Assembly: GCA_964582295.1 (NCBI GenBank)
Contig: CAZOQP010000002.1
Location: forward strand, 148,268 to 209,369
From: an uncultured Candidatus Saccharibacteria bacterium
Lineage (GTDB): Bacteria > Patescibacteriota > Minisyncoccia > Phycocordibacterales > Zambryskibacteraceae
DNA: 61,102 bases
Reading direction: 5' to 3'
Made by a program: the position numbers and the translations under genes. The notes under the pieces were generated by a model. That model saw only the letters and a list, made by a program, of their open reading frames with translations, had not been told where the DNA came from and searched no databases. This document shows, in pieces, positions 27,175 through 56,687 of the stretch. The number at the start of each line of letters is the position of its first letter. Position 1 is the first letter of the stretch.

Positions 27175-27338
27175 CCGCTCGCCGTGCCTTTCGGCGTACA
27201 CGCATAAATTTGCCCAGCGGCAAATTTTGCTGTCTCTCAGCTCGCCAAAGTAAAGAGCCCCTCGTGATTACACTCGGGGTCATTGACTTACCTAGCTTTC
27301 TCGCTTCCGAGACGTACGGCGAAAGGCACGGCTCGCTA
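27175..27338 (-). repeat. GAGCGA-flanked palindromic element 1
   Basis: Arms GCCGTGCCTTTCGGCGTAC / GTACGGCGAAAGGCACGGC (1 mismatch); flanks TAGCGA and GAGCGG on the minus strand. Confidence 0.65.
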
Positions 27339-27349
27339 CAAAATCCTTA

Positions 27350-27473
27350 GAGCGAGGGGTGATGACGAAAAGAGGCAGTGCAGCGCGAGGGTGCCGTTGC
27401 TGAATGGTTGCATTCAGACGGTGAGCAAGCAGCAGATTTTTATGCGTACTCTTTTCGTCATCACCCCGAGCGA
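27350..27473 (+). repeat. GAGCGA-flanked palindromic element 2
   Basis: GAGCGA-GGGGTGATGACGAAAAGAG...CTCTTTTCGTCATCACCCC-GAGCGA; close copy at 56550. Confidence 0.85.
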
Positions 27474-27659
27474 CTTTTATTTCTTGGCTTCCTTGAAAAT
27501 CACCCTCTTTCGGAGCTTTTTGGAGTATTTTTTAAGCTCTATTTTGCGCTCTACTTTGCGCTTATTCTTGCGGGTGTAATACACCTCGCCCGTTTCCTTA
27601 TTGCGGAGAATTATAAGTTGGTCTTGTGACATGATGAGGGAAAGATACCACAGCTCTGT

Positions 27660-28802
27660 TTAATTGCAAACCGTCCGCCGAAGGTGGGGGGCTATATGGA
27701 CCAGTATCTCATGGGAGATAGTTTCTGAGAGTTTCGCCATTGATTCCACGGAGTTCTTATTCTCTCGGCATCGGCTTATGATGATTACCGAATCGCTAAT
27801 TTTGGCATCCGGAACTTCGCTAACATCGATTGAGGAAATATTCATGCTCACCCTGCCAATAATGGGACACATGATGCCTTTCAAAGAGACAAATCCCCTG
27901 TCTGACAGTCTCCGGTCAATACCCTCAAAATATCCCGCGGGAATGGTAGCAACGGACGTCTGCTTTTCTGTTTTGTAAGTGCAGTTATATCCCACGTGCT
28001 CTCCGGGAAGGATTGTTTTGACGGACGTAATGAGCGAGCGCATTTCAAGAACAGGTTTGAGAGGCAGATCTCCTGAGTGCTTGGACGAAATACCGTAAAG
28101 ACCAAGCCCTAGACGTGCGACATTGGTGCTTTCAGGCGCAAAACGCACTCCGGCTGTTGCCGAAATATGAAAAAACCGGATGTCCTCAAATTCCTTTTTA
28201 AAACATCTCACGGATTCTTCCCACTTCACTAATTGTTTATTTGTAAATGTATCTTTTTCACCATCTGCATCAGCAAAGTGAGAACATAAACCTTCAAGTG
28301 TTAATAAAGTCTGTCCTTTTATAATCTTGATTGCTTCGTTTATATCATTTTCGGAAATACCCTGCCGATGCATACCAGTATCTATTTTTAAGTGAACCAC
28401 CTTCGGACTTCTGGCAGTTTCAGCAAGACTCTTTAATTGTTCAATGCTTGTGATTGTAAATGACACATTAGAGAGAGACGACGAATTGATGTTTTCGGGG
28501 CTTGCATACCCAACGATAAGAATTTTTGATTTTATATCCTCACCACGCAGAAGCATTGCTTCATAAAGCGAATCAACTACGAAAAAAGGTACGTTTTCCC
28601 CATCAAGTACACGGGCAACAGGCACAAGCCCATGGCCGTAAGCATTACTCTTTAGGACTGGAGCAAAAGATATTTTTGGGTATGAAGATATGTACGTACA
28701 TAAATTATGAATGAGACTGTTTTTTGAAATAAAAATTTCAATAGAAGGACTATAGGGCGACAGAGACTTTTTGACAGTCCTTAACCACGAGAGAAATTTC
28801 AT
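27660..28802 (-). CDS. alr: Alanine racemase
   Basis: VLKSNAYGHG PLP lysine, HLKIDTGMHRQG, HVGYNCTY, GRVSMN. Confidence 0.95.
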   Translation of the reverse strand: MKFLSWLRTVKKSLSPYSPSIEIFISKNSLIHNLCTYISSYPKISFAPVLKSNAYGHGLVPVARVLDGENVPFFVVDSLYEAMLLRGEDIKSKILIVGYASPENINSSSLSNVSFTITSIEQLKSLAETARSPKVVHLKIDTGMHRQGISENDINEAIKIIKGQTLLTLEGLCSHFADADGEKDTFTNKQLVKWEESVRCFKKEFEDIRFFHISATAGVRFAPESTNVARLGLGLYGISSKHSGDLPLKPVLEMRSLITSVKTILPGEHVGYNCTYKTEKQTSVATIPAGYFEGIDRRLSDRGFVSLKGIMCPIIGRVSMNISSIDVSEVPDAKISDSVIIISRCRENKNSVESMAKLSETISHEILVHIAPHLRRTVCN

Positions 28803-28917
28803 ATTCTATGATTATATCAAGCAGATGAATATTCACGTAAGCTGACCATGTCTTAGGCTTGAAGCCCAACAAATTTGACGTATGATGGCCCTCGGCAACC
28901 TTTAATCAAGAGGCTAT

Positions 28918-29172
28918 ATGAGCAATCGCTCTGTTGGCAAAATGTCAGGCAAGGTATGGTTCAGAAGAGAAATTGCTGACCTGAAACGACGCCAAAAAAT
29001 AGACCCTCAAGAGTTCCGTGCACGAGTTCTTGTGGTTTACCAAGCTCTCCAGACAATTGTAAGTCCGGGGATGAAAATTAATCTGTCTAAAGGAGGCGAC
29101 GAGGTTTTGGATACCAAGATCAGAACATTGGTTCAATCTGTGAGCCCAGTTGATACAAAAGATGGAAAGTGA
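28918..29172 (+). CDS. Hypothetical protein (84 aa)
   Basis: ORF with AGAGG upstream, followed by palindrome TTTAGAGCGCTCATATGAGCGCTCTAAA (29178-29205). Confidence 0.55.
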   Translation: MSNRSVGKMSGKVWFRREIADLKRRQKIDPQEFRARVLVVYQALQTIVSPGMKINLSKGGDEVLDTKIRTLVQSVSPVDTKDGK

Positions 29173-29274
29173 AATATTTTAGAGCGCTCATATGAGCGCT
29201 CTAAACTTTTTAATATTGTTTTCCTTATAACAAATGAGGCCCGCCATGTTCTTTGGCGGGCCTCTTAGACGGTA

Positions 29275-29838
29275 CTATCGAAACAACGTAGCAATTTTCT
29301 TCCGCAAGTTTCTTTGTTGTGCAAGCCTCCAGCGGCGAAGTTTTTTCCATTCTACTTCCAAAAACTTGGGCGGCTCAGGAAGCGGACCATAGCCTTCAAG
29401 TTGGTCCTGCTGCTTCACGAACTCGCACATGCAATTGGGAACCGTGCGACCGTATCTGTCGCACAGACAAGGTCCATACTTAAGTGGCAGAAGTCGGAGC
29501 TCTCCCCGTCTGATTTTTTCCCGCTCCTCGAGCATCCGTCGATGCGATTCGATTGCCTTACTCTCAGTACATGCACAGAAACTGAGTTCGCGACCACAGC
29601 GACAAAACCTCGGCAATGGCGAAAGAAGCCTTGGATAGAAATCCGCACCGCCACCATAGACCCCGCGGATCTGCTCCCATCTGCCACCATTGTCTTCGTC
29701 GTAAGAAAGACCGATCTGCTTATCCTTGCAATACCACGGATCATGCAGGACTTTCGTCCCATCTTCGTTCAAAAGCTCTCGCCCGCAATTTTGGCAATAG
29801 GTTTTCTGAAATCGTTCAGCGAAATCCTTTCTAGCCAT
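29275..29838 (-). CDS. Cys-rich hypothetical protein, putative Zn-binding
   Basis: SD AGGAGG; CQNC, CRCG..CAC, CLCD..CMC clusters; own promoter TTGACA-N18-TAAGGT. Confidence 0.65.
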   Translation of the reverse strand: MARKDFAERFQKTYCQNCGRELLNEDGTKVLHDPWYCKDKQIGLSYDEDNGGRWEQIRGVYGGGADFYPRLLSPLPRFCRCGRELSFCACTESKAIESHRRMLEEREKIRRGELRLLPLKYGPCLCDRYGRTVPNCMCEFVKQQDQLEGYGPLPEPPKFLEVEWKKLRRWRLAQQRNLRKKIATLFR

Positions 29839-29948
29839 GTAGCAACCTCCTTTTTATTGAATTGACTGTTCTGGGCGCACCTTATCACATATTTAAAAAA
29901 CATGTCAATCTCATGTTTACACTGAACGATCTTTAGCGAGTCGAAGTG

Positions 29949-30030
29949 TGCGTCGGGAGGGACTCGAACCCACGATGCCCGAAGGCCGGAGATTTACAGT
30001 CTCCTGGAATAGCCGCTATCCGACCGACGC
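29949..30030 (-). tRNA. tRNA-Tyr(GTA)
   Basis: GCGTCGG/CCGACGC, GGAGA-CTGTAAA-TCTCC, long variable arm. Confidence 0.93.
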
Positions 30031-30083
30031 AGTGCTTCATAATCTAGCAGATTATGGTGTGATTTACGAGAGAAAGGGATTGA

Positions 30084-32792
30084 TTACTTCTGCGCCGATT
30101 CTTTAGGTTTGTCCGCTTTCTTTTTTGTTTCGGTGTTCGTCCACAGGCTTCCGCGGCGGCCTTTTTTGATATCAAAAATAAATTCGTCGTTCTTCACGTT
30201 CACTACCACTTCCCCGCCACGTGACAATCCTTTGGATATCATAAGAGACGCAATCGGTGTCAATATCTTGTTCTGAATAACACGCTTCAAAGGGCGCGCA
30301 CCGTATTGAGGACTGTATCCTTCTTTGGCTAAAAGCTCGTAAGCCGGCTCTGAAATAATAAGGGTCAATTCCCTATCTACTAGGCGCTTCTTCACTTGCT
30401 CCACCTGAATATCCACAATACTGCGGATGGCATCCTTCGAAAGAACATCAAAGAGAATGATGTCATCCAAGCGGTTCAGGAATTCGGGGCGGAAAAATTC
30501 CTTGAGACTTACCATCACTTTTTCCTTTGCAGATTCGTAATCTCCCCCGCCATCTCCCAAGTTGAAACCTACACGCTCCATTTTGTCTATGTATTGAGCA
30601 CCAATGTTTGAAGTAAGGATGATAAGGGTGTTCTTGAAGTTAACGGTGCGGCCTTTAGCATCCGTCAGGCGGCCGTTATCAAGCACTTGAAGCAAAATGT
30701 TGAATACCTCCGGGTGAGCTTTTTCTATTTCGTCAAAAAGAATAACAGCATACGGTCTGTGGCGCACCATCTCGGTAAGCTGGCCTCCTTCCTCGTGCCC
30801 CACGTAGCCGGGCGGCGAACCGATAAGCTTTGAAACAGAATGTTTTTCCATGAATTCAGACATATCCACGCGGATGAGAGCTTTCTCGTCGTCAAACAAA
30901 AATTCAGCAAGAGCTTTGGTGAGCTCTGTTTTTCCTACACCCGTCGGCCCGAGGAAAATAAATGAGCCGACGGGGCGGTTCGGATCAGAAATGCCCGCGC
31001 GTGAGCGCTTCACTGTGTCGGCAATTTTTTTCACCGCTTCGTCCTGGCCCACCACGCGTGCTTTCAGGAATTCTTCCATGCGGGAGAGGCGCTCGGCTTC
31101 CTGTTCAAGCATGCGGGTAACAGGAATACCCGTCCAACGCGAAACGATGTCTGCAATATCTTCTGCAGTTATCTCCTCGCGAAGCATTCTGCGCGAGCTT
31201 TGCATGCGCTTCAGACGCTTTGATTTCTGCTCAAGCTCCCGCTCCAAAAACGGTATCTCGCCGTAACGGATTTCCGCTGCCCGTGCAAGGTCTGCCCTAG
31301 CTTCCGCACCTTCCGCTTCCAGGCGAAGCTTTTCCAGGTTTTTCTTTATATCTTTGAGCCCCTCAACGGTCTGCTTCTCCCCCTTCCACTTCATTTCAAT
31401 GTCACGGGTCTTTTCCTTCAATGCCTGCACCTCTTCTTCTATGGTTTTTATGCGTGCTTTGGTTTTCGCATCTTTTGTGGTCTCTATTTCTTTTTTGAGC
31501 GCCTGCCTTTCTATCTCCAAACGGCGCACTTTGGTTGCTGTTTCCTCAAGAATAGGCGGCATATTTTCAAGAGAAATTTTCAAATGCGAAGCGGCTTCGT
31601 CTATGAGGTCAACCGCTTTGTCTGGCAAAAACCTGTCGGTAATGTAGCGAGATGAAAGATTAACTGCCGCCACTATAGCTTCGTCGGTTATACGCACCCC
31701 GTGATAAAGCTCGTATTTTTCCTTGAGCCCGCGAAGAACGGCGACAGCATCTTCAACTGTCGGCTCATTCACATGAACGGGCTGGAAACGTCTTGTTAAG
31801 GCCGGGTCTTTCTCAATATGTTTCTGATATTCCTTAAGTGTCGTGGCGCCAATTGCCCGCAATTCCCCGCGCGCAAGAGGCGGCTTCAGCATGTTTGAAG
31901 CATCCATGGCGCCTTCAGCCGCACCTGCTCCGACGATAGTGTGTATCTCGTCTATGAAAAGAATTATCTTTCCTTCGGAGCGCTCTATTTCTTTTATTAT
32001 ATTTTTCAGACGCTCTTCAAATTCACCGCGATATTTGGTTCCGGCGATAAGGAGACCGAGGTCAAGCGAGACTAGCTCTTTGTCTTTAAGCGACTCCGGC
32101 ACATTTCCCGATGACATACGCTGGGCGAGGCCTTCAACAATGGCGGTCTTTCCCACTCCGGCTTCTCCTATGAGTATCGGGTTGTTCTTTGTACGACGGG
32201 AAAGTATTTGTACGATGCGGGCTATTTCATTGTCTCGTCCGATGACCGGATCAAGCTTATTTTCACGTGCAAGCTTCGTAAGCGAGCGTGTGTATTTCAA
32301 AATAGATTTTGGTTTTTTCGGATCTTTCTCCCGTCCGTCCTTAGTGGTTTTCAATTCCTCAATGGTGCGCACTACCAGAGCTCTGTCCAGTTTGAAGCGT
32401 GCCAAAAGATCGCGTGCAGAACTAGGCACTTCAAGAATGGAAATGAACAAATGCTCAACAGAAACAAATTCGTCACCCAAAGATTTCGCCGCCTTGAGGC
32501 CGTTGTCTATTGTCTGAGCGAGCTCGGGGGTGAGATATATCTGATAAGAGGAAGAGAGGACAGAGGAGCTGTCGGAGCCTTCAAGAGACTCAAGTATGGA
32601 ATCCGTGAGGAGGATACTATCAACATCCAGGCGGTCAAGAATGAGCCCTACAGTGGACTCCTCCTGCAGAGTGAGCGCCGCCAAAAGGTGGAGAGGATTG
32701 ACATGATTCTGCCCACGCTCAATAGCAAGCTCATGAGCTCTTTTCAGGGCTTCCTTGGCTTTAGTTGTGAATTGATGGAATGGAGGAGGCAT
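30084..32792 (-). CDS. clpB: ATP-dependent chaperone ClpB
   Basis: Two AAA+ modules ([16 protein letters not shown]), coiled-coil M domain with AEIRYG, GARPLKR. Confidence 0.93.
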
Positions 32793-32848
32793 AACAGAAA
32801 AAATACATTCAAAGGAGGGTCAGGTCAAGCGATTTTTGGAAGTACTAC

Positions 32849-33628
32849 TTAACGAACGGCTTCCAGCAGAAGCGGGCTATAAATGAAGAAGCGCCCTGTT
32901 TCAAGATCTGAACGCCTGATGCCTACTATGTCGCCTGAAAGATCTATGAGGGGAGAACCGTTGGTGGCGCGGGTGCGGTCAAAATCCGTCTCTATTGTGC
33001 GCGGACTCGTGGAAGATGTCCCCTGAATATTGCTGATGTGCCCCACCAGCGCCACGTTGTCTATCTGCCCTTCAATAACGACAACCGTCTGCCCGAGTTT
33101 CGGAATGCTTTTTGTGAATGTGGCCGGGGTCACTCCGTTCACTGGAACAGAAGCTGCTCTGAAAAGAATGACGCCTGGTTCAGGTACATCTTTCTGTATA
33201 GCAAGATTCACAGTAGTGCCGTCTGCAAAGGTTCCGGTTGAAGCATATTGCGGAACGAAAAGCGGCGTGCGCTCCGCAATTATCTCGCCTTCTTGAGAAA
33301 TGACCACTCCGATTGCATAAAAAGTGGGAGAACCGTCGGGTCCGATCTGCCTGATACGCACAACCGAGCTCATATTTTTAGTAATAGCGGCCGTTACTTT
33401 GTCGTCTTCCGAGACCACCTGAACCTCTCTCACTGTGCGAGTGCCTTCCGGAGTGGTAACCACACGCTCAATGGTTCTCTCCACCACGCGGTTTATCGTC
33501 TGGCTCACAGTAGCAGGCGCTTCCTGTAAAAGAGAAACTGTCATAATGCCCGTCGCAATTGACGTGACGAAAGAAACAAGAAGAGTGAGGAGAACAAGCT
33601 GGGTCTTCGTAAGGTGCTCCATGTTCAT
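32849..33628 (-). CDS. Membrane-anchored trypsin-fold protein, catalytic triad apparently lost
   Basis: LTKTQLVLLTLLVSFVTSIATG anchor; trypsin-like layout with TNGSPLIDLSGDIVGI in place of GNSGGPL. Confidence 0.6.
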   Translation of the reverse strand: MNMEHLTKTQLVLLTLLVSFVTSIATGIMTVSLLQEAPATVSQTINRVVERTIERVVTTPEGTRTVREVQVVSEDDKVTAAITKNMSSVVRIRQIGPDGSPTFYAIGVVISQEGEIIAERTPLFVPQYASTGTFADGTTVNLAIQKDVPEPGVILFRAASVPVNGVTPATFTKSIPKLGQTVVVIEGQIDNVALVGHISNIQGTSSTSPRTIETDFDRTRATNGSPLIDLSGDIVGIRRSDLETGRFFIYSPLLLEAVR

Positions 33629-33645
33629 TTAATTATACATCACAC

Positions 33646-34863
33646 TTATTTACTGTGCGACAACTTAATGTGCGTACCTGTGGCTTGGGGAACCGCACGT
33701 TTCAGTGCCGCGATAATTACATTTAGGTCTTTTTCAGTGGTACCGCGACCGAATGAAAAACGCAGAGAAGAAAAAGCGCAATCCTTCTTAACCGCAGACG
33801 AGAAAATTTCATCCTCCAGATTCTCGCACGCGCTTGACGCTGACGCACTCACACCTTCCGAGTCAAGGATAAGGACTGCCTGCTCCGCGAGAAGACCGGG
33901 GAAGCATATATTCACATTGCCAGGGTGACGGAAAACACCAATGTCAGGGCCGTTCAAAACAGCTTCTGGAAAATGTTTGGTGATAAGGCGGAGGAAATTT
34001 TTCTGAAGCTTTGCCAAGCGCTTGTTTTCTGCGGGACGCTTTTCTTCGGCTTCTACAAGGGCTTCTGCAAAGCCAGCGATGCAGGAAACATTTTCAGTGC
34101 CTGCTCGCAGACCCCTTTCCTGTCCACCTCCCCGGAAGACAGCTTCCAAAGCAACTCCCCTTTTCACAAAAAGTGCTCCCACCCCTTTAGGTCCGTATAT
34201 TTTTCCTGAATCAAGGGTCATCATGTCAATTCCTAAAACATTTTTATCAAGAGGCAGGATACCTGCCGCAGCGCTTGCGTCCAAATGCACATACGGCATC
34301 CGGGTTTTGTTGTCCTTCCGATGGGAACGTACTATCTTCATAATGTCTCGCACTTTTTGGATTGTGCCTATCTCCCCATTTATAAGACCGAATGAGATGA
34401 TGATCGGTTTCCTTGAGAGTTCCTTTTTAAGAGCTTTAAGATCCAAATGTCCGGCATCATCGGCCGGAATTAAGGAAATATCCGTTTGCGAAAAATTATC
34501 CGCCGCACGAGTGAGAGACGGATGATCTATGGAAGATACCAGAATGCGGGGCTTTGCATTTTTATTCATATCCTTATGTACGTACATAAGGATGACACCC
34601 TGAATGGCAAGATTATTAGCTTCGGTGCCACCTGAAGTGAATACAATCTCATCCGGCTCCGCACCAATTACCTTGGCAATCTTGCGGCGCGCAGAGGAAA
34701 GGATAGTAGCCGCGGCAACACCGCCCGCATAAAGTGCACTCGGATTATGCCAAAAAGCTTTTTCAGCCGACCTCATAGCTTTCAAGGCGCGCGAAGAAAG
34801 AGGTGTTGCCGCGGCGTAATCCGCATACACTTTCCTCTTTTTCCTGTTATTACGAGCTTTCAT
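33646..34863 (-). CDS. Cysteine desulfurase (IscS/NifS-like)
   Basis: YADYAAATP, FTSGGTEANN, SGKIYGPKG, RAGTEN, SASSAC; start 34863 fits a leaderless promoter (34872 possible). Confidence 0.9.
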   Translation of the reverse strand: MKARNNRKKRKVYADYAAATPLSSRALKAMRSAEKAFWHNPSALYAGGVAAATILSSARRKIAKVIGAEPDEIVFTSGGTEANNLAIQGVILMYVHKDMNKNAKPRILVSSIDHPSLTRAADNFSQTDISLIPADDAGHLDLKALKKELSRKPIIISFGLINGEIGTIQKVRDIMKIVRSHRKDNKTRMPYVHLDASAAAGILPLDKNVLGIDMMTLDSGKIYGPKGVGALFVKRGVALEAVFRGGGQERGLRAGTENVSCIAGFAEALVEAEEKRPAENKRLAKLQKNFLRLITKHFPEAVLNGPDIGVFRHPGNVNICFPGLLAEQAVLILDSEGVSASASSACENLEDEIFSSAVKKDCAFSSLRFSFGRGTTEKDLNVIIAALKRAVPQATGTHIKLSHSK

Positions 34864-34959
34864 GGAAGTCATTGTGGCATTTTGGTGAAAATGAGGAAAA
34901 TTGCAAACGGGAAATAATAGTCATTTAATGTTAATATCACGAAACCGAAGTGAAAAAGC

Positions 34960-36929: not shown

Positions 36930-36933
36930 AGAG

Positions 36934-37260: not shown

Positions 37261-37269
37261 TCTGAATGC

Positions 37270-37344
37270 GGCGTAGTGGTGAAGTGGTAACACAGCGGTC
37301 TGCAAAACCGCGATGCGGGGGTTCGATTCCCCCCTACGCCTCCA
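37270..37344 (+). tRNA. tRNA-Cys(GCA)
   Basis: GGCGTAG/CTACGCC, GCGGT-CTGCAAA-ACCGC, U discriminator, encoded CCA. Confidence 0.95.
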
Positions 37345-37368
37345 GAAAACCCCGCGGGGTTTTCTAAC

Positions 37369-37449: not shown

Positions 37450-37472
37450 CCCCAAATAAAGCGGATACGAAA

Positions 37473-37505: not shown

Positions 37506-37520
37506 ATGGCCCGAAATTTT

Positions 37521-45364: not shown

Positions 45365-45504
45365 GAGCGAGGGGTATTCCTTGAAAATGTTTTTTGAGTA
45401 AAGCACTCAGACACGAAAAGAGACTCAGACCCGGGGCACGCCCCGGAGTGGTCTCTTTTCGTGTCTGAGTGCGTGCCTCCATTTTCAGAGAATACCCCGA
45501 GCGA
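45365..45504 (+). repeat. GAGCGA-flanked palindromic element 3
   Basis: GAGCGA-GGGGTATTC...GAATACCCC-GAGCGA with inner 20-bp arms ACTCAGACACGAAAAGAGAC/GTCTCTTTTCGTGTCTGAGT. Confidence 0.8.
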
Positions 45505-48333: not shown

Positions 48334-48337
48334 ATTC

Positions 48338-48961: not shown

Positions 48962-49249
48962 TTGCCTATTATATCAAAAACGGCCCATTTTAGCCACATA
49001 TTTAACAATATATTCCCTCACTTGACAATATATCCACATATGGGTGTATAATCTAGAGTGGACCCTCAACGCAGGAGGATTATCGATTACACGAAAAACC
49101 AAGCGGATTTGTCATCACTGGGGTAAGAAAGAAGTACCGTAAGAAGGGAAGTACAATGTGGAAGACTGGGAACCAAGAGTGCGCGCCGTACTGTGGACGG
49201 CGCGCACTTTTCCTTTTTATACAATCAATAAAAATGTTATAAATTACCT

Positions 49250-49696
49250 GTGAACAATATTGTGCTCGCGAACGTTGTCGTCGCAGTCCATGCAACTCTC
49301 ATCTTCAGTGTCCTGGTGGGGATATTAATAAGCGTGCGCTATAAAAGATTCCGACCACTTGAAACTTTTGCACTTATCGCCTTCATTCTCATTTGGTCGC
49401 TTTACGGCGCTTGCCCTCTCACTAACCTGGAAGATTATTTAAGAGGAGGACCCCCGTCCGCCACATCGCTTACCAACACGGGATTCATTCCATATTATCT
49501 CCGCGACCTTTTCGGCATTGAGTTGCCCAGACGTTTCGTGGTAAACAGTATTTACGCGACAGGCGCGATCTTTTTCCTCATCTCCATAGAGTGGCTAAGT
49601 CCCTACATAAACATAGAAATTGGAAAGGCCAGGAAATTTTTTCGCCGTAAAGAGCGCAAAGAGAGTGGTCCACGCGGACGCCGCAGGAAGCGATAG
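49250..49696 (+). CDS. DUF2784-like membrane protein
   Basis: VVAVH..., CPLTNLEDYLR, GFIPYYL. Confidence 0.75.
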   Translation: MNNIVLANVVVAVHATLIFSVLVGILISVRYKRFRPLETFALIAFILIWSLYGACPLTNLEDYLRGGPPSATSLTNTGFIPYYLRDLFGIELPRRFVVNSIYATGAIFFLISIEWLSPYINIEIGKARKFFRRKERKESGPRGRRRKR

Positions 49697-49787
49697 CACT
49701 GGCAAACTATCGCTTTTTGTGATACATTTGCCCCGCCACACTAAAAAGTGGCTTTTTTAGAACTTATTATCAGTTAACCATTAACAG

Positions 49788-49844
49788 CCCGGGGTCATCC
49801 CGCTCAAGAGAGTGTGAAAGTAACGGCCATGAGCGGCCCCCGGG
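49788..49844 (+). promoter_or_regulatory. Structured rpsA leader
   Basis: CCCGGGG..CCGCTCA...TGAGCGG-CCCCCGGG stem ending 8 nt before ATG. Confidence 0.5.
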
Positions 49845-49852
49845 AACACCAA

Positions 49853-50938
49853 ATGACAACCAAAGAATTAGAAACAAGGGAGAACTCGGTGATGCATAAA
49901 TACCTCGCCGACTCCCCCAACCCGCCAACACCAGACGACATAGTGGAGGGTAAAGTTATAGGGATTGATAAAGCAGCCATTTATGTTGACCTCGTGCCCT
50001 TCGGCACAGGCATCATTTTCGGACGTGAATTTTTCCAGGCGCGCGACATCATAAAGAACGTGAATGTGGGCGACACCATCGCTGGCAAAGTGGTGGGTTT
50101 TGACAACCCTGAAGGATATATAGAAATATCACTCAAGGAAGCACGCCAGGCACAGATATGGCAGGAAGCAGAAGACGCCATCCGCGACAAAAAGCAGTTT
50201 GAAGTACTCATTGCAGACGCAAACAAGGGCGGGCTTATCATCAGCTGGCAGGGCATTCAGGGATTTTTGCCTGCATCACAGCTCAAACCCGAGCACTACC
50301 CTCGCGTAACTGACGGCGACAAAGACAAGATATTAGACGAGCTTCGAAAGCTTGTGGGCGAGCGTTTGGATGTCGCAATAATCGCGGCCATGCCGAAGGA
50401 AGGTAAGCTTATCTTCTCTGAAAAAGGCGAGATGGAAAAAAGCCGAAGCGAGCTGGTGGATAAATATGCGCTCGGCGAGGAAACAATGGGTGAAGTTACA
50501 GGCGCCGTGGATTTCGGAATCTTCGTGAAGCTTGAAGAGGGCTTGGAAGGGCTGGTGCACATTTCTGAAATGGACTGGTCGCTCGTGGAAAATCCGCGCG
50601 CAATGTACAAAGCCGGAGACCGTGTGAAAGTGAAAGTGATAGATATAAAGGACGGCAAAGTTTCGCTCTCCATTAAGGCCTTGAAACAGAACCCTTGGCA
50701 GGACGCTCTAAAGAAATACAAGAAAGGCGATGTAGTGAAGGGTGTTGTCATCAAATTCAACAAACACGGAGCACTCGCATCAATTGAAGAAGGTGTGGCA
50801 GGCCTCGTGCATGTTTCGGAATTCGGTTCAGAGGATAAACTTCGTGAAAAGCTGGGTCTTGGAAAGGTTTACAACTTCAAGATAGCCACCTTTGATCCGA
50901 AAGAGCAGAAAATGACCCTTAGTTTTGTAGAAAATTAA
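49853..50938 (+). CDS. rpsA: 30S ribosomal protein S1 (short, about 4 S1 domains)
   Basis: GFLPASQL, EGLVHISEMDW, SLSIKAL, GLVHVSE; start ATG 49853. Confidence 0.92.
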   Translation: MTTKELETRENSVMHKYLADSPNPPTPDDIVEGKVIGIDKAAIYVDLVPFGTGIIFGREFFQARDIIKNVNVGDTIAGKVVGFDNPEGYIEISLKEARQAQIWQEAEDAIRDKKQFEVLIADANKGGLIISWQGIQGFLPASQLKPEHYPRVTDGDKDKILDELRKLVGERLDVAIIAAMPKEGKLIFSEKGEMEKSRSELVDKYALGEETMGEVTGAVDFGIFVKLEEGLEGLVHISEMDWSLVENPRAMYKAGDRVKVKVIDIKDGKVSLSIKALKQNPWQDALKKYKKGDVVKGVVIKFNKHGALASIEEGVAGLVHVSEFGSEDKLREKLGLGKVYNFKIATFDPKEQKMTLSFVEN

Positions 50939-50955
50939 GAGCTCAACAGCCGGGT

Positions 50956-50991
50956 GCACAAAAAATGGCCGATATCGGCCATTTTTTGTGC
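50956..50991. repeat. Loopless palindrome (CACAAAAAAT family)
   Basis: GCACAAAAAATGGCCGATATCGGCCATTTTTTGTGC, perfect 36 bp. Confidence 0.8.
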
Positions 50992-51075
50992 TAACTATTG
51001 ACTTTTTACTGTTGAGTATGATATAATATAGAAAGAACAAAGAAGTACCATACCAATTCCTTTCCGGAGGAAACC

Positions 51076-51561
51076 GTGCAACGCACCGAGGAAGCAACCG
51101 AGGCCCGTGATCTGGTTTTATATCTGATCGGCGGGCTTTCTATCGTCGCGCTGGATCGAATGATCCCGAATCACAGGAAAATCCAGTGCGTCACAGAAGG
51201 AGAGCTCCACCGTGCCATTCTTCTCTTCTGTATACATATCGGTTACCCAACCGACTGTAACGAACTGAAGTGGGTTGCGGGACGGGTTCAAGCTGTCACG
51301 GATGCACTTGGTGAACTTGCACAGCGTGGTTTCCAAGCAAGAGAGTTTCGCCTCGGGGGGGAGAACTACAATGGTTTCCCACTCAACGACGCAGTGGAGA
51401 ACTATGCCAAAATACTCGCCGATCTCCGGGAGAAATGCCATGGCGATGTACGCTCCGATGTTTTGGTAAGGGCGTCGTCACTAGTCTCGCAAACAATGCG
51501 AGATGAGAATGAACGTCGCCGGAAGCCTGCCAAACAGCAGTCGGGAAGATCAGGATGGTGA
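51076..51561 (+). CDS. Hypothetical protein (161 aa)
   Basis: SD GGAGG, promoter TTGACT-N18-TATAAT, downstream 20-bp hairpin. Confidence 0.65.
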   Translation: MQRTEEATEARDLVLYLIGGLSIVALDRMIPNHRKIQCVTEGELHRAILLFCIHIGYPTDCNELKWVAGRVQAVTDALGELAQRGFQAREFRLGGENYNGFPLNDAVENYAKILADLREKCHGDVRSDVLVRASSLVSQTMRDENERRRKPAKQQSGRSGW

Positions 51562-51565
51562 TAAC

Positions 51566-51609
51566 ACCACCCCGTGAGATATCGCTTGCGCGATATCTCA
51601 CGGGGTGGT
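51566..51609. terminator. 20-bp hairpin (GTGAGATA family)
   Basis: ACCACCCCGTGAGATATCGC-TTGC-GCGATATCTCACGGGGTGGT between convergent genes. Confidence 0.8.
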
Positions 51610-51615
51610 TTTCAA

Positions 51616-51960
51616 TTACGACAAAATTTCGTTCAATCTTTCCAAAAATTCATTCTTCTTTTCATGGGTCGGTCTTGTCAGCCCACTTTTCATTATTACG
51701 TCCACCTCATCTTTTATATGAGAGATACCTGCATTCATATATTCGGCTTCCTCTTTTGATATTTCTCTGTCTTCCGCAGCCATTTCTATTTCTACATGAA
51801 GAGCTGCCATTTTATTGTTCAAAGCTCCGAACCAATTGTTGCGGTCCTCTGCGACATCATTTTCTAATCCGCCAAATAACTCCTGCCAGAGTTTTTTAAG
51901 GCGTTCTTTTCCTCCGCCAGCTGGCGGATCCACTTCAACCGGATTTTTTATTCCATCCAT
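51616..51960 (-). CDS. Hypothetical acidic helical protein
   Basis: 114 aa ORF directly downstream of pth. Confidence 0.65.
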   Translation of the reverse strand: MDGIKNPVEVDPPAGGGKERLKKLWQELFGGLENDVAEDRNNWFGALNNKMAALHVEIEMAAEDREISKEEAEYMNAGISHIKDEVDVIMKSGLTRPTHEKKNEFLERLNEILS

Positions 51961-51969
51961 AATTATTTT

Positions 51970-52557
51970 CTAACCATTATAAACGCTCGCCGCATGCATC
52001 GGAGATTCAGACACTACGGTCTCAACCGCCTCTAGAGCTCTCTTTATTGCTTTAGCCGCCGCCAATTTTTCAGGTGCACGGAACTCGCCTAGCACAAGTG
52101 CGATAATTTTATCCTTGCCTTTAGGCTTCTTTGGCTTGCCAGAGGGTGAAAGCGGCAAAACGCCAAGCTTTAATCTGTACATCGCTTCAGTTTTAACAGC
52201 CCGCACCACTGACTCCACTCCCCTGTGGCCGCCCGAGCCGCGATTGAAAACTATTTTCATTGAACCGAGCCCCATATCAATGTCGTCGTGTATCACAAGA
52301 AGATCCTTCGCCGCTTTAGCGCTCTTAACATATGCTCCCACCGCTTTGCCAGAAGCATTCATACCGACATCTGGAAGTATTAAAACGACACTTTCCTTGC
52401 CTATTTTGCCTTTCGCCACATCTGCTTTGGACTTTGCTTCTTTTTTGAATTCCATTCCATGAGCTTTGGCGAGCTTCAGCACAACATCGCGGCCGATGTT
52501 GTGCCGAGTGCCATCATATTCTTTTTCTGGATTCCCGAGCCCTGCTATATGCCACAT
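51970..52557 (-). CDS. pth: Peptidyl-tRNA hydrolase
   Basis: GLGNPEKEYDGTRHNIG, MNASG, HDDID, GGHRG. Confidence 0.95.
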   Translation of the reverse strand: MWHIAGLGNPEKEYDGTRHNIGRDVVLKLAKAHGMEFKKEAKSKADVAKGKIGKESVVLILPDVGMNASGKAVGAYVKSAKAAKDLLVIHDDIDMGLGSMKIVFNRGSGGHRGVESVVRAVKTEAMYRLKLGVLPLSPSGKPKKPKGKDKIIALVLGEFRAPEKLAAAKAIKRALEAVETVVSESPMHAASVYNG

Positions 52558-52631
52558 AATGAGCCGATTTTATCACGAAAAAAGATGTAAAACTTGTTCT
52601 CTTGCAGATGCCGTACTACAATGCCTTACAA

Positions 52632-53252
52632 ATGAATCCAGATAGTGAAGAAACAAAGATCTTTTCTCCCCCTCCTCCGCGAAAAAAATGGTACCAATAT
52701 GGTTTTATCCGGGACGTCGGCTCTTTCATCCTCATCGTGGTCTTCGTGGTTATTCCTTTCAGGATTTACGTGGCTCAGCCATATCTGGTGACGGGTGGCT
52801 CCATGGACCCTACATTTGAGAACGGCGAATATCTGATAGTGGACCAGCTTTCATATCGCTTTGATGACCCGAAGCGGGGCGAGGTCATTATTTTCCGTTT
52901 CCCGAAAGACCCTAGGGAGTTTTTCATCAAAAGGGTCGTCGGGTTGCCTGGCGAGACGGTCAAGCTTTCTATAGGTGGCGTCACCATAGTGAACAAAGAT
53001 AATCCTGAAGGATTTCTCCTCTCCGAACCGTACGTTGTTTTTGACAAAAAAGATGCACTCATCATGAACCTGAAAGATAACGAGTATTTTGTGATGGGAG
53101 ACAACCGTATAGCGAGCGCCGATTCACGCCTGTGGGGGCCAGTGCCGCGCGAAAATGTGGTTGGTAGACCATTCGTGGCTCTTTTCCCGCTCAGCAAGAT
53201 ACGCTTCATGCCGGGCTCGGTTTCCGCCTTTGAACAGACTTTGCAAAAATAA
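52632..53252 (+). CDS. lepB: Signal peptidase I
   Basis: GGSMDPT (Ser), FIKRVVGLPGE (Lys), MGDNR.ASADSR.WG; start ATG 52632. Confidence 0.95.
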   Translation: MNPDSEETKIFSPPPPRKKWYQYGFIRDVGSFILIVVFVVIPFRIYVAQPYLVTGGSMDPTFENGEYLIVDQLSYRFDDPKRGEVIIFRFPKDPREFFIKRVVGLPGETVKLSIGGVTIVNKDNPEGFLLSEPYVVFDKKDALIMNLKDNEYFVMGDNRIASADSRLWGPVPRENVVGRPFVALFPLSKIRFMPGSVSAFEQTLQK

Positions 53253-53264
53253 TATTCCGTTTTC

Positions 53265-54446
53265 ATGAAAGCCAAAGAAAAAATAAAAGAAGTGGAAATG
53301 GCTTATACGCCTAAAGCTCCTGCATTTCCCGTGCGCCCGTTCTCCCTTAAGGCAGATGAGACCGCCTCTTTTTTCGGCTTCAACTCAATGGATTCATTCC
53401 TGCCGGGAAGGCAGGACAGAGAATATGCACGTGAGCTTGCGGACGGCAATACACAGGCCGTGCCATTCCTTGATGAAGATGTGGCTTTCGTAAAAAAATA
53501 CCTTGCCGAAAGCTGGTTTGACAGGCCGCATCCCCTTCTTCTTTCATCCCACAACAGCATGGACAAGAAGAAAACTTCGGTGAGCTTGCGGCTGGTAGGC
53601 ATTGCAGGATCGGCCGCGGAAGCACTTGCTATAAGGACTTCCCTTTCGCTTTTGGAGGAAGCTGGGCACAAAAATCTCATGGTGGCACTTGGTTCTATCG
53701 GAGACCGCGAATCAATGAACGATTTCGACCGCGCGGTCGCCTCTTTCCTGCGCAAAAACACCCCTCTTATGCTGCCTGAAATGCGGAAACTTATGCGCGA
53801 GAATCCTCTTGCTCTTCTGACGGACAAAAAATATGTGGGCTCCCCTTTTGCTGAGCGTTTCCCCACACCAATCGCTTCCCTTTCGCCAACTGCACGTAAT
53901 CTTCTGAAAGAGGTCATTGAATATGTGGAAGCAATGGATGTTCCGTACTTTTTGGACACGGCGCTTGTGGGGCCACGCTCCATTTCGCACCATATTGTTT
54001 TTGAGATACGTGATGCGGAAAGCGGCGAGGTTTTCTCGCGAGGATTACGTCTTTCACCCCTCATAAAACGTATGGGAGGAAAAAGGGAGACGGCTTTCCT
54101 TTCTGTTACGGTCGCGGCCGGAGCCACCAAGGCCGTGCGGAAACTTGCTCCCGTGCCCAAGTTCCATTTCGTACAGCTCGGATATTCCGCAAAACTCCTT
54201 TCGCTTTCTCTTGTTGAAAGATTAAGAAAGGAGGGAGTGGCGGTACTTTTCCACATCTCACGCGACAAACTGCTTTCCCAATTGGGCCCCGAAGATAAAA
54301 CTCCATTTTTGATAATCATGGGTCACAAAGAAGCACTGGATAAAACTGTGGTCATCCGCGACAACGAAACCCGTGCCCAGATCATAGTCCCCCTCGCCGA
54401 CGCTCCAGCTTTCATAAAAAAGGTCCTCAAAAGAGGCCGCGTATAA
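53265..54446 (+). CDS. Degenerate histidyl-tRNA synthetase-like protein
   Basis: HisRS-like layout (PY.LD..LV, VFEI, C-terminal IIMG..E....V.IRD anticodon-binding domain) with eroded motifs 2 and 3. Confidence 0.65.
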   Translation: MKAKEKIKEVEMAYTPKAPAFPVRPFSLKADETASFFGFNSMDSFLPGRQDREYARELADGNTQAVPFLDEDVAFVKKYLAESWFDRPHPLLLSSHNSMDKKKTSVSLRLVGIAGSAAEALAIRTSLSLLEEAGHKNLMVALGSIGDRESMNDFDRAVASFLRKNTPLMLPEMRKLMRENPLALLTDKKYVGSPFAERFPTPIASLSPTARNLLKEVIEYVEAMDVPYFLDTALVGPRSISHHIVFEIRDAESGEVFSRGLRLSPLIKRMGGKRETAFLSVTVAAGATKAVRKLAPVPKFHFVQLGYSAKLLSLSLVERLRKEGVAVLFHISRDKLLSQLGPEDKTPFLIIMGHKEALDKTVVIRDNETRAQIIVPLADAPAFIKKVLKRGRV

Positions 54447-54447
54447 T

Positions 54448-54486
54448 CCCCCAGGATAAACCTGAGTCCCAGGTTTATCCTGGGGG
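54448..54486. terminator. 17-bp hairpin (AGGATAAACCT family)
   Basis: CCCCCAGGATAAACCTG-AGTCC-CAGGTTTATCCTGGGGG. Confidence 0.75.
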
Positions 54487-54542
54487 TGGCTTACAGCTTA
54501 AAGCTTGAAGCTTACATCTTTGTGTGTTAAAGTCTTCCGGCA

Positions 54543-54791
54543 ATGAGTATTAATGTTGAAGTAACACGTGGATCAACCGAGAACAGTCTCTCGGTCCTTC
54601 GCCGTTTCACCAAAAGGGTGCAGGGTTCAGGCGTCCTCCCCCGCGTACGCAGCAAGCGCTATTCCGAGCGCAGTATCTCCGAGAATGTGAAGAAAAAGCG
54701 GGCTCTCAAGCGCTTGAAGAAGCGCGCCGTTATCACCCAGGCCCTCAAGATGGGCAAAACCATTGAGAAAGTCCGTGGCCGCAGGCGCTAA
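54543..54791 (+). CDS. rpsU: 30S ribosomal protein S21 (divergent)
   Basis: V.V...EN..S.LRRF.KRV..SG.L...R..RY..R pattern, highly basic. Confidence 0.75.
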   Translation: MSINVEVTRGSTENSLSVLRRFTKRVQGSGVLPRVRSKRYSERSISENVKKKRALKRLKKRAVITQALKMGKTIEKVRGRRR

Positions 54792-55233
54792 AAAAGTTTC
54801 AGTCTCTTTTGTGGCTTTAAGCGCCGCGCGCGGAATTCCGCGCGCGGCGCTTACGCGCGCAGCCCATTTAATACTCTCCTCCTCATACGAACTCTCTGTA
54901 GTTTTCACTAATTCCGCTCATTCACAGCAACTGAATAAAAAATTCCGCCGCAAAAATTATCCTGCGAATGTGCTTTCATTCCCCCTTTCATCATCTTCGG
55001 GAGAAATATTTTTGGACATCAAAAAAATATCAAAAGAAGCGAAAGATTTCGGCCTTTCCGGCAAAAATGCTGTCATTTATATGTTTATCCACGCACTCCT
55101 GCATTTGAAAGGCCGCAAACACGGCGCTACAATGGACGCTGAAGAAAGGCGCACTTTGGAGAAACTAAAAATCCCCATGCCTTTCCACTTGAACCAACAC
55201 ACACATGGCAAGAAACATCGCCGTCGGCATTGA
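54763..55233 (+). CDS. ybeY: rRNA maturation endoribonuclease YbeY
   Basis: LNKKFR.K..PANVLSF, GEIF, HALLHLKG..H; start uncertain (GTG 54811 plausible). Confidence 0.85.
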   Translation: MRKSVAAGAKKVSVSFVALSAARGIPRAALTRAAHLILSSSYELSVVFTNSAHSQQLNKKFRRKNYPANVLSFPLSSSSGEIFLDIKKISKEAKDFGLSGKNAVIYMFIHALLHLKGRKHGATMDAEERRTLEKLKIPMPFHLNQHTHGKKHRRRH

Positions 55234-56389
55234 TTTGGGCTCTAGCACTGTAAAGGTGGTGGTAGCTGAAAGGGGCAACTCCGCCCCGCGTATTCTTGCG
55301 ACAGGTGTGGCGGAATCAAAAGGCCTGCGGCATGGCTACGTGGTGAATTCTGCGGAAGCGGCGCGCGCGGTGAAAATGGCAAAAGAGATGGCGGAGAAAC
55401 AGTCCGGCATCCGCATAGAATCAGCCATTGTATCTGTGGGAGGTGTCGGCCTTTCAGGTATCACATCTTCAGGCACCGCAACCATCACAAGACAGGATGA
55501 CGAAATACACGAAGGAGATATTGAAGAAGCTCTGCGCGCCGCCGAAAATGCCATTCCTAAAAGCGAGATAAAGAACCGCCGCATCCTTTACAACATCCCA
55601 ACCGAATACATTATTGATAAAAAACCTGTTTTCGGAAAAGTGCTCGGCATGAGAGGTAGCGAACTGACAGTGAAAGCTCTTTTCATAACCTGTCTCGAAA
55701 GCCATGTGAAAGAACTAGTGGAAACACTTGCCGAAGCCGGCATTGAAACTTTGGATGTATGTGCTGCACCCATTGCCGCAAGCTTCGTAACACTTACCAA
55801 ATCCCAGAAGATCGCCGGCTGCATTTTGGTAAACATTGGCTCAGAAACCACATCTGTCGCCGTGTTTGAAAATAATCTTCCACTTTCTCTTGAAGTTTTT
55901 CCCATGGGCTCTGTTGATATCACACACGCCCTTGCTTTGGGTCTTAAAATATCTCTTGAAGAGGCCGAGATGGTGAAGCGCGGCGGCATTACGAACGATG
56001 ATTATCCGCGTCGGAAACTGGACGACATTATCACTTCGCGCATGGGAGATATTTTTGATCTCGTGGAAGCGCATCTCAAGAAAACAGGCCGTGCCGGCCT
56101 TTTACCTGCAGGTGTAGTGGTAGTCGGTGGTGGAGCAAACTTTGCAACAATTGAGGATTTTGCGCGCGCCGCTCTTCGCCTTCCATCGCGTATCGCACAT
56201 ATTGAACTTGGCCACCGGGATAGAACTATCCGTGATTCTTCGTGGGCTGTTGCTTATGGACTTTGCTATCTCGGACTTGAATCCGATGATGACTTTCCTC
56301 TTTCACTTGCTTCACTTTCAGGAATGCTTAAAAAGCGAGGAAAACTTGAAGCTATCGCCAAAAATTGGTTTTCTAAATTCATACCCTGA
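55205..56389 (+). CDS. ftsA: Cell division protein FtsA
   Basis: GIDLGSS, S.GLRHG.V, LVNIGSETT, VVVGGGANF. Confidence 0.93.
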   Translation: MARNIAVGIDLGSSTVKVVVAERGNSAPRILATGVAESKGLRHGYVVNSAEAARAVKMAKEMAEKQSGIRIESAIVSVGGVGLSGITSSGTATITRQDDEIHEGDIEEALRAAENAIPKSEIKNRRILYNIPTEYIIDKKPVFGKVLGMRGSELTVKALFITCLESHVKELVETLAEAGIETLDVCAAPIAASFVTLTKSQKIAGCILVNIGSETTSVAVFENNLPLSLEVFPMGSVDITHALALGLKISLEEAEMVKRGGITNDDYPRRKLDDIITSRMGDIFDLVEAHLKKTGRAGLLPAGVVVVGGGANFATIEDFARAALRLPSRIAHIELGHRDRTIRDSSWAVAYGLCYLGLESDDDFPLSLASLSGMLKKRGKLEAIAKNWFSKFIP

Positions 56390-56394
56390 AGACG

Positions 56395-56486
56395 TCACTC
56401 AGATAACACCCTTTTTCAAACAGTTGCCGCTTCGGTGTTTACGAAATCACCTCCCGCGTGTGTGAAAAAGGGTGTTATCTTCGCTC
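56395..56486 (-). repeat. GAGCGA-flanked palindromic element 4
   Basis: 18-bp arms AGATAACACCCTTTTTCA/TGAAAAAGGGTGTTATCT; minus-strand flanks GAGCGA and GAGTGA. Confidence 0.75.
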
Positions 56487-56509
56487 CTTAAGTATTAGAA
56501 CTTAACTTA

Positions 56510-56687
56510 AAGCGAGCAGTACGGAGTTTTTCAAACTAGAGTTAATTTAGAGCGAGGGGTGATGACGAAAAGAGGCTGTGCAGCGCGACGGCGCGAGGGT
56601 GAGCAAAAAATCAGCAGATTTTTATGCGTACTCTTTTCGTCATCACCCCGAGCGAATGCTGTTTGAAAAACTCCGTACTGCGAGCGA
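56510..56687 (+). repeat. GAGCGA-flanked palindromic element 5 (outer)
   Basis: AAGCGA-GCAGTACGGAGTTTTTCAAAC...GTTTGAAAAACTCCGTACTGC-GAGCGA, perfect 21-bp arms. Confidence 0.8.
56550..56655 (+). repeat. GAGCGA-flanked palindromic element 6 (nested in element 5)
   Basis: Same 19-bp arms and GCAGATTTTTATGCGTA core as 27350-27473. Confidence 0.85.

Follow-up and report, generated by a model that had tools for sequence, protein, structure and literature searches.

Direct GAGCGA-like hexamers bracket five classes of hairpin elements behind stop codons in a Candidatus Saccharibacteria genome

Repetitive extragenic palindromic (REP) sequences and REPINs, Ssn/NTS repeats, IS200/IS605 insertion sequences, MITEs (miniature inverted-repeat transposable elements), and integron attC sites share a common logic, in which a folded structure is combined with a short tag. 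IS200/IS605 elements insert 3' of a fixed 4- to 5-nt target with a lagging-strand bias. Tagged REPs and REPINs with their RAYT proteins have been described for the GTAG and CGTC super-families (Di Nocera et al. 2013, PMC3733652). The Ssn/NTS system (SRM) pairs a single-domain GIY-YIG nuclease for single-stranded DNA with a hairpin repeat (Chenal et al. 2025, PMC11893778), which is read only as single-stranded DNA and takes its orientation from non-palindromic flanks (PMC11893778). Bacterial MITEs and in-gene palindromes, including Correia/NEMIS, RUP, and the Rickettsia RPE, have been reviewed (PMC3184786). In TIGR-Tas arrays, an edge repeat, a 9-nt spacer, a loop repeat, and a spacer recur in tandem beside a Nop-domain gene (PMC12045711). 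Here, we analyzed intergenic hairpin elements with a GAGCGA-like hexamer in direct orientation on both sides, found in a 61,102-nt stretch of DNA (the window) from an uncultured Candidatus Saccharibacteria bacterium. Searches of the literature turned up no account of such elements for the candidate phyla radiation, and each of the five systems named first fails defining features that were tested.

The window corresponds to C2:148268-209369 of genome G000 (contigs are written C1, C2, C3, C5, and so on), which comprises 567,816 bp in 7 contigs, has a G+C content of 46%, and is 99% complete. The six elements claimed for the window in a preliminary description were found again with the same coordinates and the same grammar (Table 1). 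We tentatively read the family to which they belong as structure-defined, gene-less mobile hairpin cassettes, the hexamers being boundary sites borne by the elements themselves, and assign this reading a probability of roughly 0.45.

For the genome-wide census, inverted repeats of G000 with an arm of at least 10 and a span of at most 450 were collected, and the six bases outside each arm were compared. Among 515 inverted repeats, eight had identical direct hexamers on both sides, and all eight hexamers were GAGCGA/TCGCTC; the same hexamer accounted for six of the nine repeats with one-mismatch flanks. When control DNA (1.04 Mb from 80 related organisms, 881 repeats) was subjected to the same test, two identical-flank and seven one-mismatch repeats were obtained, and GAGCGA was present in none of them. 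Thus, the hexamer is enriched around long hairpins genome-wide, well beyond what chance would give. A relaxed-grammar search of G000 plus inspection gave at least 24 elements in 568 kb, some of them nested.

Conserved interiors set five classes (A to E), over which the "four different stems" of the preliminary description are distributed; the sub-motifs said to be shared among them, ACGAAAAGAG and TTTTTCAMAC, were indeed found. Class A (approximately 81 nt; 10 copies in G000) has a variable 12-bp outer stem and a near-constant core, AAAAGAGAC-TAAGACyyGGGsmAmCGCCCCGGAGTG-GTCTCTTTT, with a 41-nt GAGAC...GTCTC tip. Class B (106 to 124 nt) is built of GGGGTGATGACGAAAAGAG arms and a conserved asymmetric interior, and class C (140 nt) of GGGGTATTCTCTGAAAATG arms that wrap an A-like unit. 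In class D, a variable 11-nt stem is followed by TTTTTCAMAC ... GTKTGAAAAA (a TTTTTCAMAC/GTTTGAAAAA scaffold), and the loop is either a structured insert of its own or TAGAGTTATTTA + GAGCGA-[A or B]-GAGCGA + CTGCT. Class E (138 to 164 nt) forms a three-way junction. Class B does so as well; both have invariant junction strands, with TTATGCGTR common to the two. In the cores at 27275-27326 and 27431-27447, the invariant junction strand is TTATGCGTG and the other strand is CACGCATAA; the former may resemble the XerC half-site of proteobacterial dif (GCGCATAA).

The elements encode nothing. Their inverted-repeat termini have only the first G in common between classes and vary even within A and E. 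Around the unit, the consensus reads ...TTTA-GAGCGA-G...C-GAGCGA-C.TTT. Outside the hexamers, the copies within a class have little in common; therefore, the constant unit spans from hexamer to hexamer. We take the hexamers to belong to the element or its slot rather than to have arisen as a random target duplication.

For the distribution among relatives, nine E hairpins from G000 and the sister genome G003 were aligned with the hexamers removed, and a covariance model was built from the alignment. This E model was run against the six genomes of the genus and against 55 from 16 other genera in the family. It retrieved 42 copies from all 6 genomes of the genus, with 3 to 11 per genome (11 in G003 and 5 in G004), and had no match in the 55 genomes outside the genus. 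Although the hexamers were not part of the model, among the 28 matches whose flanking sequence was inspected, 20 carried [GAT]A[GA][CT]GA on the left and 20 carried GA[GA][CT]GN on the right. The E element of the window (27175-27338) was matched by the hexamer-free model (R1) at C2:175448-175599 with an E value of 2.4e-35. The A core was not found in 60 relatives and occurred in one other genome, G085, the proteins of which are 60 to 68% identical to those of G000. Among its six copies there, one is identical over the 39-nt core match; clean RAGCGA stands on both sides in two and is partial in another. The hexamer thus travels with the E and A cores across genomes, although it is missing from some E and A copies.

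Most elements lie just behind a gene. On the proximal side, the stop codon of an open reading frame (ORF) of at least 50 codons was located -1 to +6 nt (mostly 3 to 5 nt) from the second hexamer in 19 of 26 elements, compared with 5 of 26 on the distal side. Read in gene sense, the layout is stop-N3-5-TCGCTC-hairpin-TCGCTC-(C)TTAAG/TAAGTT, and the foot of the hairpin is approximately 9 to 11 nt past the stop. Across six species, 22 of 28 E copies adjoined a stop codon belonging to an ORF of 60 codons or more; in 19 of the 28, the stop was offset by 9 to 10 nt from the stem. TAA was the stop codon in 20 of these 22 cases and in 37 of 41 cases overall, compared with 56% of stops genome-wide. In the window, rpmG, gyrA, and ftsA read into elements, with the second hexamer 3 nt from the rpmG stop codon (B element, 27350-27473) and 4 nt from the gyrA stop (C element, 45365-45504). 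Two elements, E at 27175-27338 and the D scaffold at 56510-56687, stand second in their pairs and follow no gene. Between convergent genes, elements form head-to-head pairs around a CTTAAG-N7-AACTTA spacer, as at 56487-56509, and this arrangement recurs at other pairs. Since the C termini align to the last residue with the orthologues of sister species, the native stop has been retained. Since both orientations are found side by side, orientation goes with the gene rather than with one replication strand, which argues against a lagging-strand mechanism of the IS200/IS605 type.

At C5:11352, the last codons and stop of a gene themselves supply the proximal hexamer (GCGCTC) and the outer 7 nt of the stem. 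The C terminus of this gene (KMMRSE-stop) is conserved in all six species, and the complement stands in the distal arm. This leaves two explanations, namely copying of the arm from host DNA or fixation of synonymous sites that built the tag and stem. Host-copied arms were rejected as a general rule, because D-class stems are inherited between copies; one locus, C5:11352, does fit.

The copies are dispersed and nested. B copies are near-identical at more than six loci, a pattern that would fit recent spread. The same B unit was found both on its own, following stop codons, and within three different D scaffolds; the copy nested at 56550-56655 is near-identical to those at C1:53440, C1:119249, and C2:40775 and to the 27350 class. 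Units of A or B nested in D loops always keep both hexamers, and two "half-D" forms are devoid of exactly the stretch from the outer to the inner hexamer. In addition, a solo distal arm with its hexamer, matching the D scaffold of the window (56510-56687), stands after a stop codon at C3:4945. The outer stem of the D element at 56395-56486, AGATAAYACCC, has three more copies in the genome (four in total).

The sister genome G003 was compared whole with G000 (median protein identity, 64%). The gyrA gene end was occupied in all five species of the genus that were compared, by different hairpin elements with TCRCTY-like flanks kept; G001 and G003 share one element there, and its arms differ by compensatory changes. 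At four gene ends, G003 has an E element and G000 a C or D element. For 281 orthologue pairs of the two genomes, the counts for a hairpin after the stop were 6/13/17/245 (odds ratio, 6.7; p = 0.002). Correlated occupancy with different contents indicates that gene ends act as persistent slots whose content turns over. This turnover, the stop-codon rule, and the conserved cores are new relative to the preliminary description, which had proposed a non-autonomous mobile family that targets or is defined by GAGCGA and is moved in trans by an enzyme encoded elsewhere. Because presence differs between species at orthologous sites, a non-autonomous mobile family remains the best reading, and the superfamily, its nesting, its near-identical copies, and its differences between species agree with that part of the proposal. 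The HUH enzyme considered in it and GAGCGA as a target found no such agreement. At approximately eight sites filled in G000 and empty in G003, a hexamer-like sequence was present at one, the convergent C1_48437/C1_49199 pair (TAA-AGCGAGCGG-TTA), and a free hexamer was seen at none of four sites filled in G003 and empty in G000. The species are only about 64% identical at the protein level, so the intergenic DNA is not alignable and the absence of the hexamer from empty sites is not decisive. TAA as a 3-bp duplication or target was also considered, as TTA often stands on both outer sides of E copies; it was rejected because nested copies have no TTA and recent B and C copies differ outside the hexamers. 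Small hexamer-bracketed hairpins as prior landing pads were found neither in G000 nor in G003 nor at the retrieved loci.

Pairing in the elements is maintained by coordinated change. In the nine-hairpin alignment, the E consensus fold has 52 pairs with 96% of cells paired, compared with 34 to 46% pairing in slid registers. Changes on both sides were seen in 38 of 52 pairs, a value reached in 0 of 500 shuffles. The E helices contain 112 double-changed cells and approximately 6 G-U cells; since nearly all changes are double, this looks more like arm-to-arm copying or module swapping of DNA than slow drift of an RNA. Several other palindrome families of G000 likewise join a constant core to variable complementary outer stems, which suggests a general process at the level of DNA. 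RNAfold favored the GAGCGA strand, antisense to the adjoining gene, for 24 of 24 and for 9 of 10 elements, and a de-duplicated symmetric count gave 32 G.T versus 18 A.C, so that the choice of strand is only suggestive. A gathering-threshold scan of Rfam 15 found only tRNAs, and E-value scans of three loci returned generic hairpin and microRNA noise far below the cutoff. No promoter or canonical terminator was detected around 56200-56900, and no U-tract follows the hairpin in gene sense. A hammerhead or C/D-box reading of GUGAUGA...GAAA was dismissed, as stem II is absent and Rfam gave no match. A small ORF within B behind the AAGGAG-like left flank was likewise rejected; the motif occurs in some copies only, and the start would be buried in the stem.

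The candidate enzymes of G000 show no link to the elements. Two Y1_Tnp genes lie outside the window; they score above the Pfam cutoff and are distantly RAYT-like. HUH (HFHIL/HFHLI) and Y motifs are present in both proteins, for which the best NCBIfam match is a REP-associated tyrosine transposase (46 bits, against a cutoff of 80). Each gene is bracketed by a private hairpin unrelated to the elements, CATAGGCAAGACCTATG and CCGAGGTTSAACCTCGG, respectively. Y1 homologues were found in 24 of 41 relatives irrespective of elements, and most of these relatives have none. Y1 and small GIY-YIG homologues were not found in G003, which has 11 E copies and contains masked N runs, and there was no Y1 match in G004 with its 5 E copies. 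The private hairpins and this absence from element-bearing genomes speak against an HUH enzyme acting in trans. Two single-domain GIY-YIG proteins of 79 and 90 amino acids are encoded at C1:154127-154366 and C2:26100-26372; a third, weaker GIY-YIG match lies within a 448-amino-acid frame. A single Xer-like tyrosine recombinase (C1:113847-114353; Phage_integrase match) was found in G000, and no TnpB. An HUH or GIY-YIG gene flanked by GAGCGA hairpins, suggested earlier as a sign of the responsible enzyme, was sought in G000, and none was present. Co-transfer of an enzyme with the A core into G085 was considered and rejected, as the homologues there are only 29 to 43% identical.

One RAYT-like gene (C1:64146-64796) is bracketed by two copies of CATAGGCAAGACCTATG. 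At a distance of 1.3 kb, a reverse transcriptase gene adjoins a four-helix-bundle (Avd-like) gene (C1:61414-62800), and the two are probably a diversity-generating retroelement. For the second RAYT-like gene (C5:18277-18930), the palindrome CCGAGGTTSAACCTCGG is found before the gene, within the frame, and at its end (C5:18209, 18405, and 18896).

The likeness to REPs and REPINs lies in gene-less palindromes of many sequence families with a common short unpaired tag, placed mostly downstream of ORFs between unidirectional or convergent genes, often in opposed pairs, and thought to be mobilized in trans. However, a REP is 20 to 40 bp long and has its 4-nt tag at a single end, and in REPINs the tags are inverted, whereas the present elements measure 80 to 211 nt, have conserved internal cores, carry a 6-nt RAGCGA tag in direct orientation at both ends, show true nesting, and keep a stop distance of mostly 3 to 5 nt. 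The RAYT-like genes, moreover, carry other hairpins and show no co-distribution with the elements. As in Ssn/NTS, non-palindromic flanks orient a hairpin repeat, and G000 has two single-domain GIY-YIG proteins. NTS is approximately 30 nt long, its flanks differ by side (CGTC...CYRG), and its stem sequence matters; here, stems are free and flanks identical. While ssnA, with its single GIY-YIG domain (cd10448), is usually flanked by its own repeats, the GIY-YIG genes of G000 are not bracketed, and G003 has its E copies without these genes.

With IS200/IS605 (PATE) elements, the family shares hairpins and short flanks in place of terminal inverted repeats read as duplex DNA, and cuts at two like sites of the same strand would release a single-stranded unit, with one site remaining. 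In IS200/IS605 elements, there are two hairpins, separate and subterminal, and the left cleavage site differs from the right, whereas a single hairpin spans the unit here between identical flanks, orientation follows the genes, and neither TnpB nor a cognate TnpA is present. MITEs are likewise small non-autonomous inverted repeats in many copies at gene ends, sometimes co-transcribed, but they keep a terminal sequence and a short duplication (TA for Correia), whereas here the termini vary and the core and direct hexamer are constant. The attC sites also combine recognition as a folded single strand, little sequence conservation, cassette exchange at a short core, and a place at 3' gene ends. 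Their R''/R' sites are inverted, paired in the stem, and accompanied by an ORF cassette, IntI, and attI; here, the hexamers are direct and unpaired, and there are no cassette ORFs. TIGR-Tas arrays were also considered and rejected on layout, as the elements are dispersed, single or paired, with 12- to 21-bp complementary stems, and no tandem array of a 36-nt unit was found (PMC12045711).

Taken as mobile cassettes, the elements would consist of RAGCGA, an outer stem that needs only to pair, one of five cores, the complementary stem, and GAGYGN. They would be non-autonomous DNA inserted, nested, exchanged, and deleted at two identical hexamers by an enzyme acting in trans, which would read the hairpin shape plus single-stranded tags, and insertions would survive only in the neutral strip just past stop codons. 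Cutting and joining at the hexamers, a single-stranded intermediate, and the enzyme itself are what we infer. Several points weigh against this reading. The strict position and orientation behind stop codons and the conservation of slots fit a host function as well as they fit survivorship. Most orthologous empty sites (7 of the 8 filled in G000 and empty in G003) are without a hexamer, and some E and A copies have none either, their stems then being longer, so that the hexamers are not indispensable. The candidate enzymes neither co-occur with the elements nor are flanked by them, and a metagenome scan of the collections gave no relative above approximately 84% gyrA identity. That the hexamers are core sites of a cassette-exchange system for non-coding gene-end hairpins seems unlikely. 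In such a system, a structure-specific enzyme (the lone Xer-like recombinase, a small GIY-YIG nuclease, or another protein) would cut and rejoin folded single strands at two identical unpaired RAGCGA tags; fixed slots 9 nt behind stops would see cassettes excised, swapped, and nested, and outer stems would be regenerated from one arm, sometimes from neighboring host codons. If true, this would be a new class of mobile DNA with integron-like logic but without genes, an integrase platform, or inverted core sites.

A host-useful structure at gene ends, whether a barrier or processing site at the mRNA 3' end or an insulator between convergent transcripts, is a serious rival reading, though we think it rather unlikely. 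Mobility would then be incidental or ancient, and the hexamers would serve as single-stranded spacers, or as sites for a protein or RNase, setting the hairpin foot approximately 9 nt past the stop. The stop near the proximal rather than the distal hexamer, its 9- to 10-nt offset from the stem of E copies in six species, the excess of TAA, the orientation with the gene, slots conserved between species, the hexamer kept where stems have wholly changed, and the building of hexamer and outer stem from synonymous positions of conserved codons at C5:11352 are all consistent with it. It accords poorly with the missing U-tract, terminator, and promoter, with the lack of an Rfam match, and with folding predictions that, if they favor either strand, favor the antisense (GAGCGA) one. 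Selfish repeats typically show near-identical copies, nesting, and bursts restricted to a genus, and the way the helices change, in whole double swaps and with hardly any G-U intermediates, also tells against it. Dynamics of palindromes without any enzyme, in which hairpin-primed template switching during replication makes, lengthens, and homogenizes arms and the direct hexamers are slippage microhomologies for precise loss or gain, would explain the ratio of double-changed to G-U cells, the distal arm at C5:11352, the longer stems of hexamer-less copies, and the half forms bounded by hexamers. At least four other palindrome families in G000 and G003, which also combine a constant core with variable complementary outer stems, are a further point in their favor. 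Such dynamics leave unexplained the identical 106- to 140-nt units at unlinked loci or in another genus, as well as one hexamer bracketing five unrelated cores, and D outer stems are inherited (AGATAAYACCC, four times; CAACAGCA, four times) rather than made anew at each site; we regard them as an improbable account of the family.

An equally improbable account has REP- or IS200-like elements targeting or duplicating GAGCGA and moved in trans by an HUH (RAYT/TnpA) enzyme. The two Y1_Tnp genes with their motifs and REP-associated best match, the REP grammar of hairpin plus short unpaired tag (PMC3733652), and the one empty site with a single hexamer-like CCGCTC are in its favor. It conflicts with the private hairpins of the Y1 genes (CATAGGCAAGACCTATG, CCGAGGTTSAACCTCGG), their distribution unlinked to the elements with none found in G003 or G004, the direct tag on both sides unlike REP or REPIN, the gene-set orientation in both directions side by side without a strand bias of the IS608 kind, the hexamer-less empty sites, and the absence of TnpB. 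Classical MITEs moved by a DDE transposase, with the 6-bp GAGCGA or the 3-bp TAA as a sequence-specific duplication, are highly improbable. Each class does have perfect 17- to 21-bp terminal inverted repeats beside a direct repeat, and TTA often stands on both outer sides. Yet the termini share only the first G between classes and vary within A and E, nested copies are without a proximal TTA, recent C and B copies differ outside the hexamers, and TAA is no precise duplication. No autonomous partner was seen, although no exhaustive transposase census was made.

Among cellular genomes, those of Patescibacteria rank with the smallest and most streamlined. Here, nested hairpin repeats nevertheless take up several kilobases of such a genome and stand behind the essential genes rpmG, gyrA, and ftsA with a precision of nearly a single base. 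If mobile, the elements would combine two identical direct tags, any stem, and a conserved core in a recognition grammar that lies outside the REP/RAYT, IS200/IS605, MITE, and attC models; they would point to a structure-specific enzyme and could mislead the annotation of gene ends. As gene-end devices of the host, they would instead give this lineage its own alternative to canonical terminators, with a spacing rule on the scale of a ribosome.

Table 1. Hairpin elements and adjoining stop codons in the window
Feature	Position	Strand	Sequence or order
E-class element, 164 nt	27175..27338	-	TAGCGA-GCCGTGCC...GGCACGGC-GAGCGG; stem GCCGTGCCTTTCGCCGTAC either side of three-way-junction core
B-class element, 124-nt variant	27350..27473	+	GAGCGA + GGGGTGATGACGAAAAGAG + core + CTCTTTTCGTCATCACCCC + GAGCGA
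rpmG (L33) stop codon TAA	27477..27479	-	gene sense: TAA-AAG-TCGCTC-hairpin
C-class element, 140 nt	45365..45504	+	GAGCGA-GGGGTATTC...GAATACCCC-GAGCGA; arms in full: GAGCGA + GGGGTATTCCTTGAAAATG ... CATTTTCAGAGAATACCCC + GAGCGA
A-like unit nested in C element	45396..45479	+	stem GCACTCAGACACG + constant A core AAAAGAGAC-N26-GTCTCTTTT
gyrA stop codon TAA	45509..45511	-	
ftsA stop codon TGA	56387..56389	+	then AGACG-TCACTC-hairpin
D-class element, 92 nt, short own loop	56395..56486	-	GAGCGA-AGATAACACCC...-GAGTGA; full order: GAGCGA + AGATAACACCC + TTTTTCACAC ... GTTTGAAAAA + GGGTGTTATCT + GAGTGA
Spacer between two opposed elements, head-to-head	56487..56509	.	CTTAAGTATTAGAACTTAACTTA
D-class scaffold, 178 nt, encloses 56550-56655(+)	56510..56687	+	AAGCGA-GCAGTACGGAG...-GAGCGA; order: AAGCGA + GCAGTACGGAG + TTTTTCAAAC + TAGAGTTAATTTA + nested B + ATGCT + GTTTGAAAAA + CTCCGTACTGC + GAGCGA
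B-class element, 106 nt, in loop of D scaffold, both hexamers present	56550..56655	+	

The A-like unit nested in the C element is flanked by degenerate hexamers, GAGTAA and GTGCCT. The E element of the window is located between the B element and the promoter of tRNA-Trp (27080-27151, minus strand). The extended -10 box of this promoter, TGTTATAAT, lies within 27152-27175 and begins 6 nt after the E hexamer; thus, the E element adjoins the tRNA-Trp promoter. The only other public contig with an identical FtsA, Logan contig SRR6868922_176482 (1.6 kb), stops 29 nt past the stop codon, inside the hairpin; repeats of this family break short-read assemblies.

Other palindromes were also recorded. 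A family of perfect palindromes with the constant center TTTGTACGATATATCGTACAAA and variable complementary outer arms has four copies in the genome, including those at 4470-4503, 6015-6052, and 7091-7130 of the window. The palindrome ATTCTAATGTTCTTAAGAACATTAGAAT, also with variable complementary outer arms, is present in five copies and is found in the window at 13054-13095 and 59528-59575. The core CGTAGGAC(A/T)GTCCTACG occurs in G000 at C1:48941, C1:119428, C2:147886, and C3:50220 and at four more positions; its outer stems are variable, its A-tract/T-tract flanks resemble those of a bidirectional terminator, and it often stands between head-to-head GAGCGA elements. In G003, a second family of hairpins after stops has 22-nt variable stems and the constant tip CACGGAGAGATATACCGCGCTCCTAAA and no outer hexamers. 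These hairpins follow the orthologues of C1_24631, C2_31231, C2_142459, C3_48099, and C3_23491, and their tip contains GCGCTCCTAA, which resembles TCGCTC-CTTAAG.

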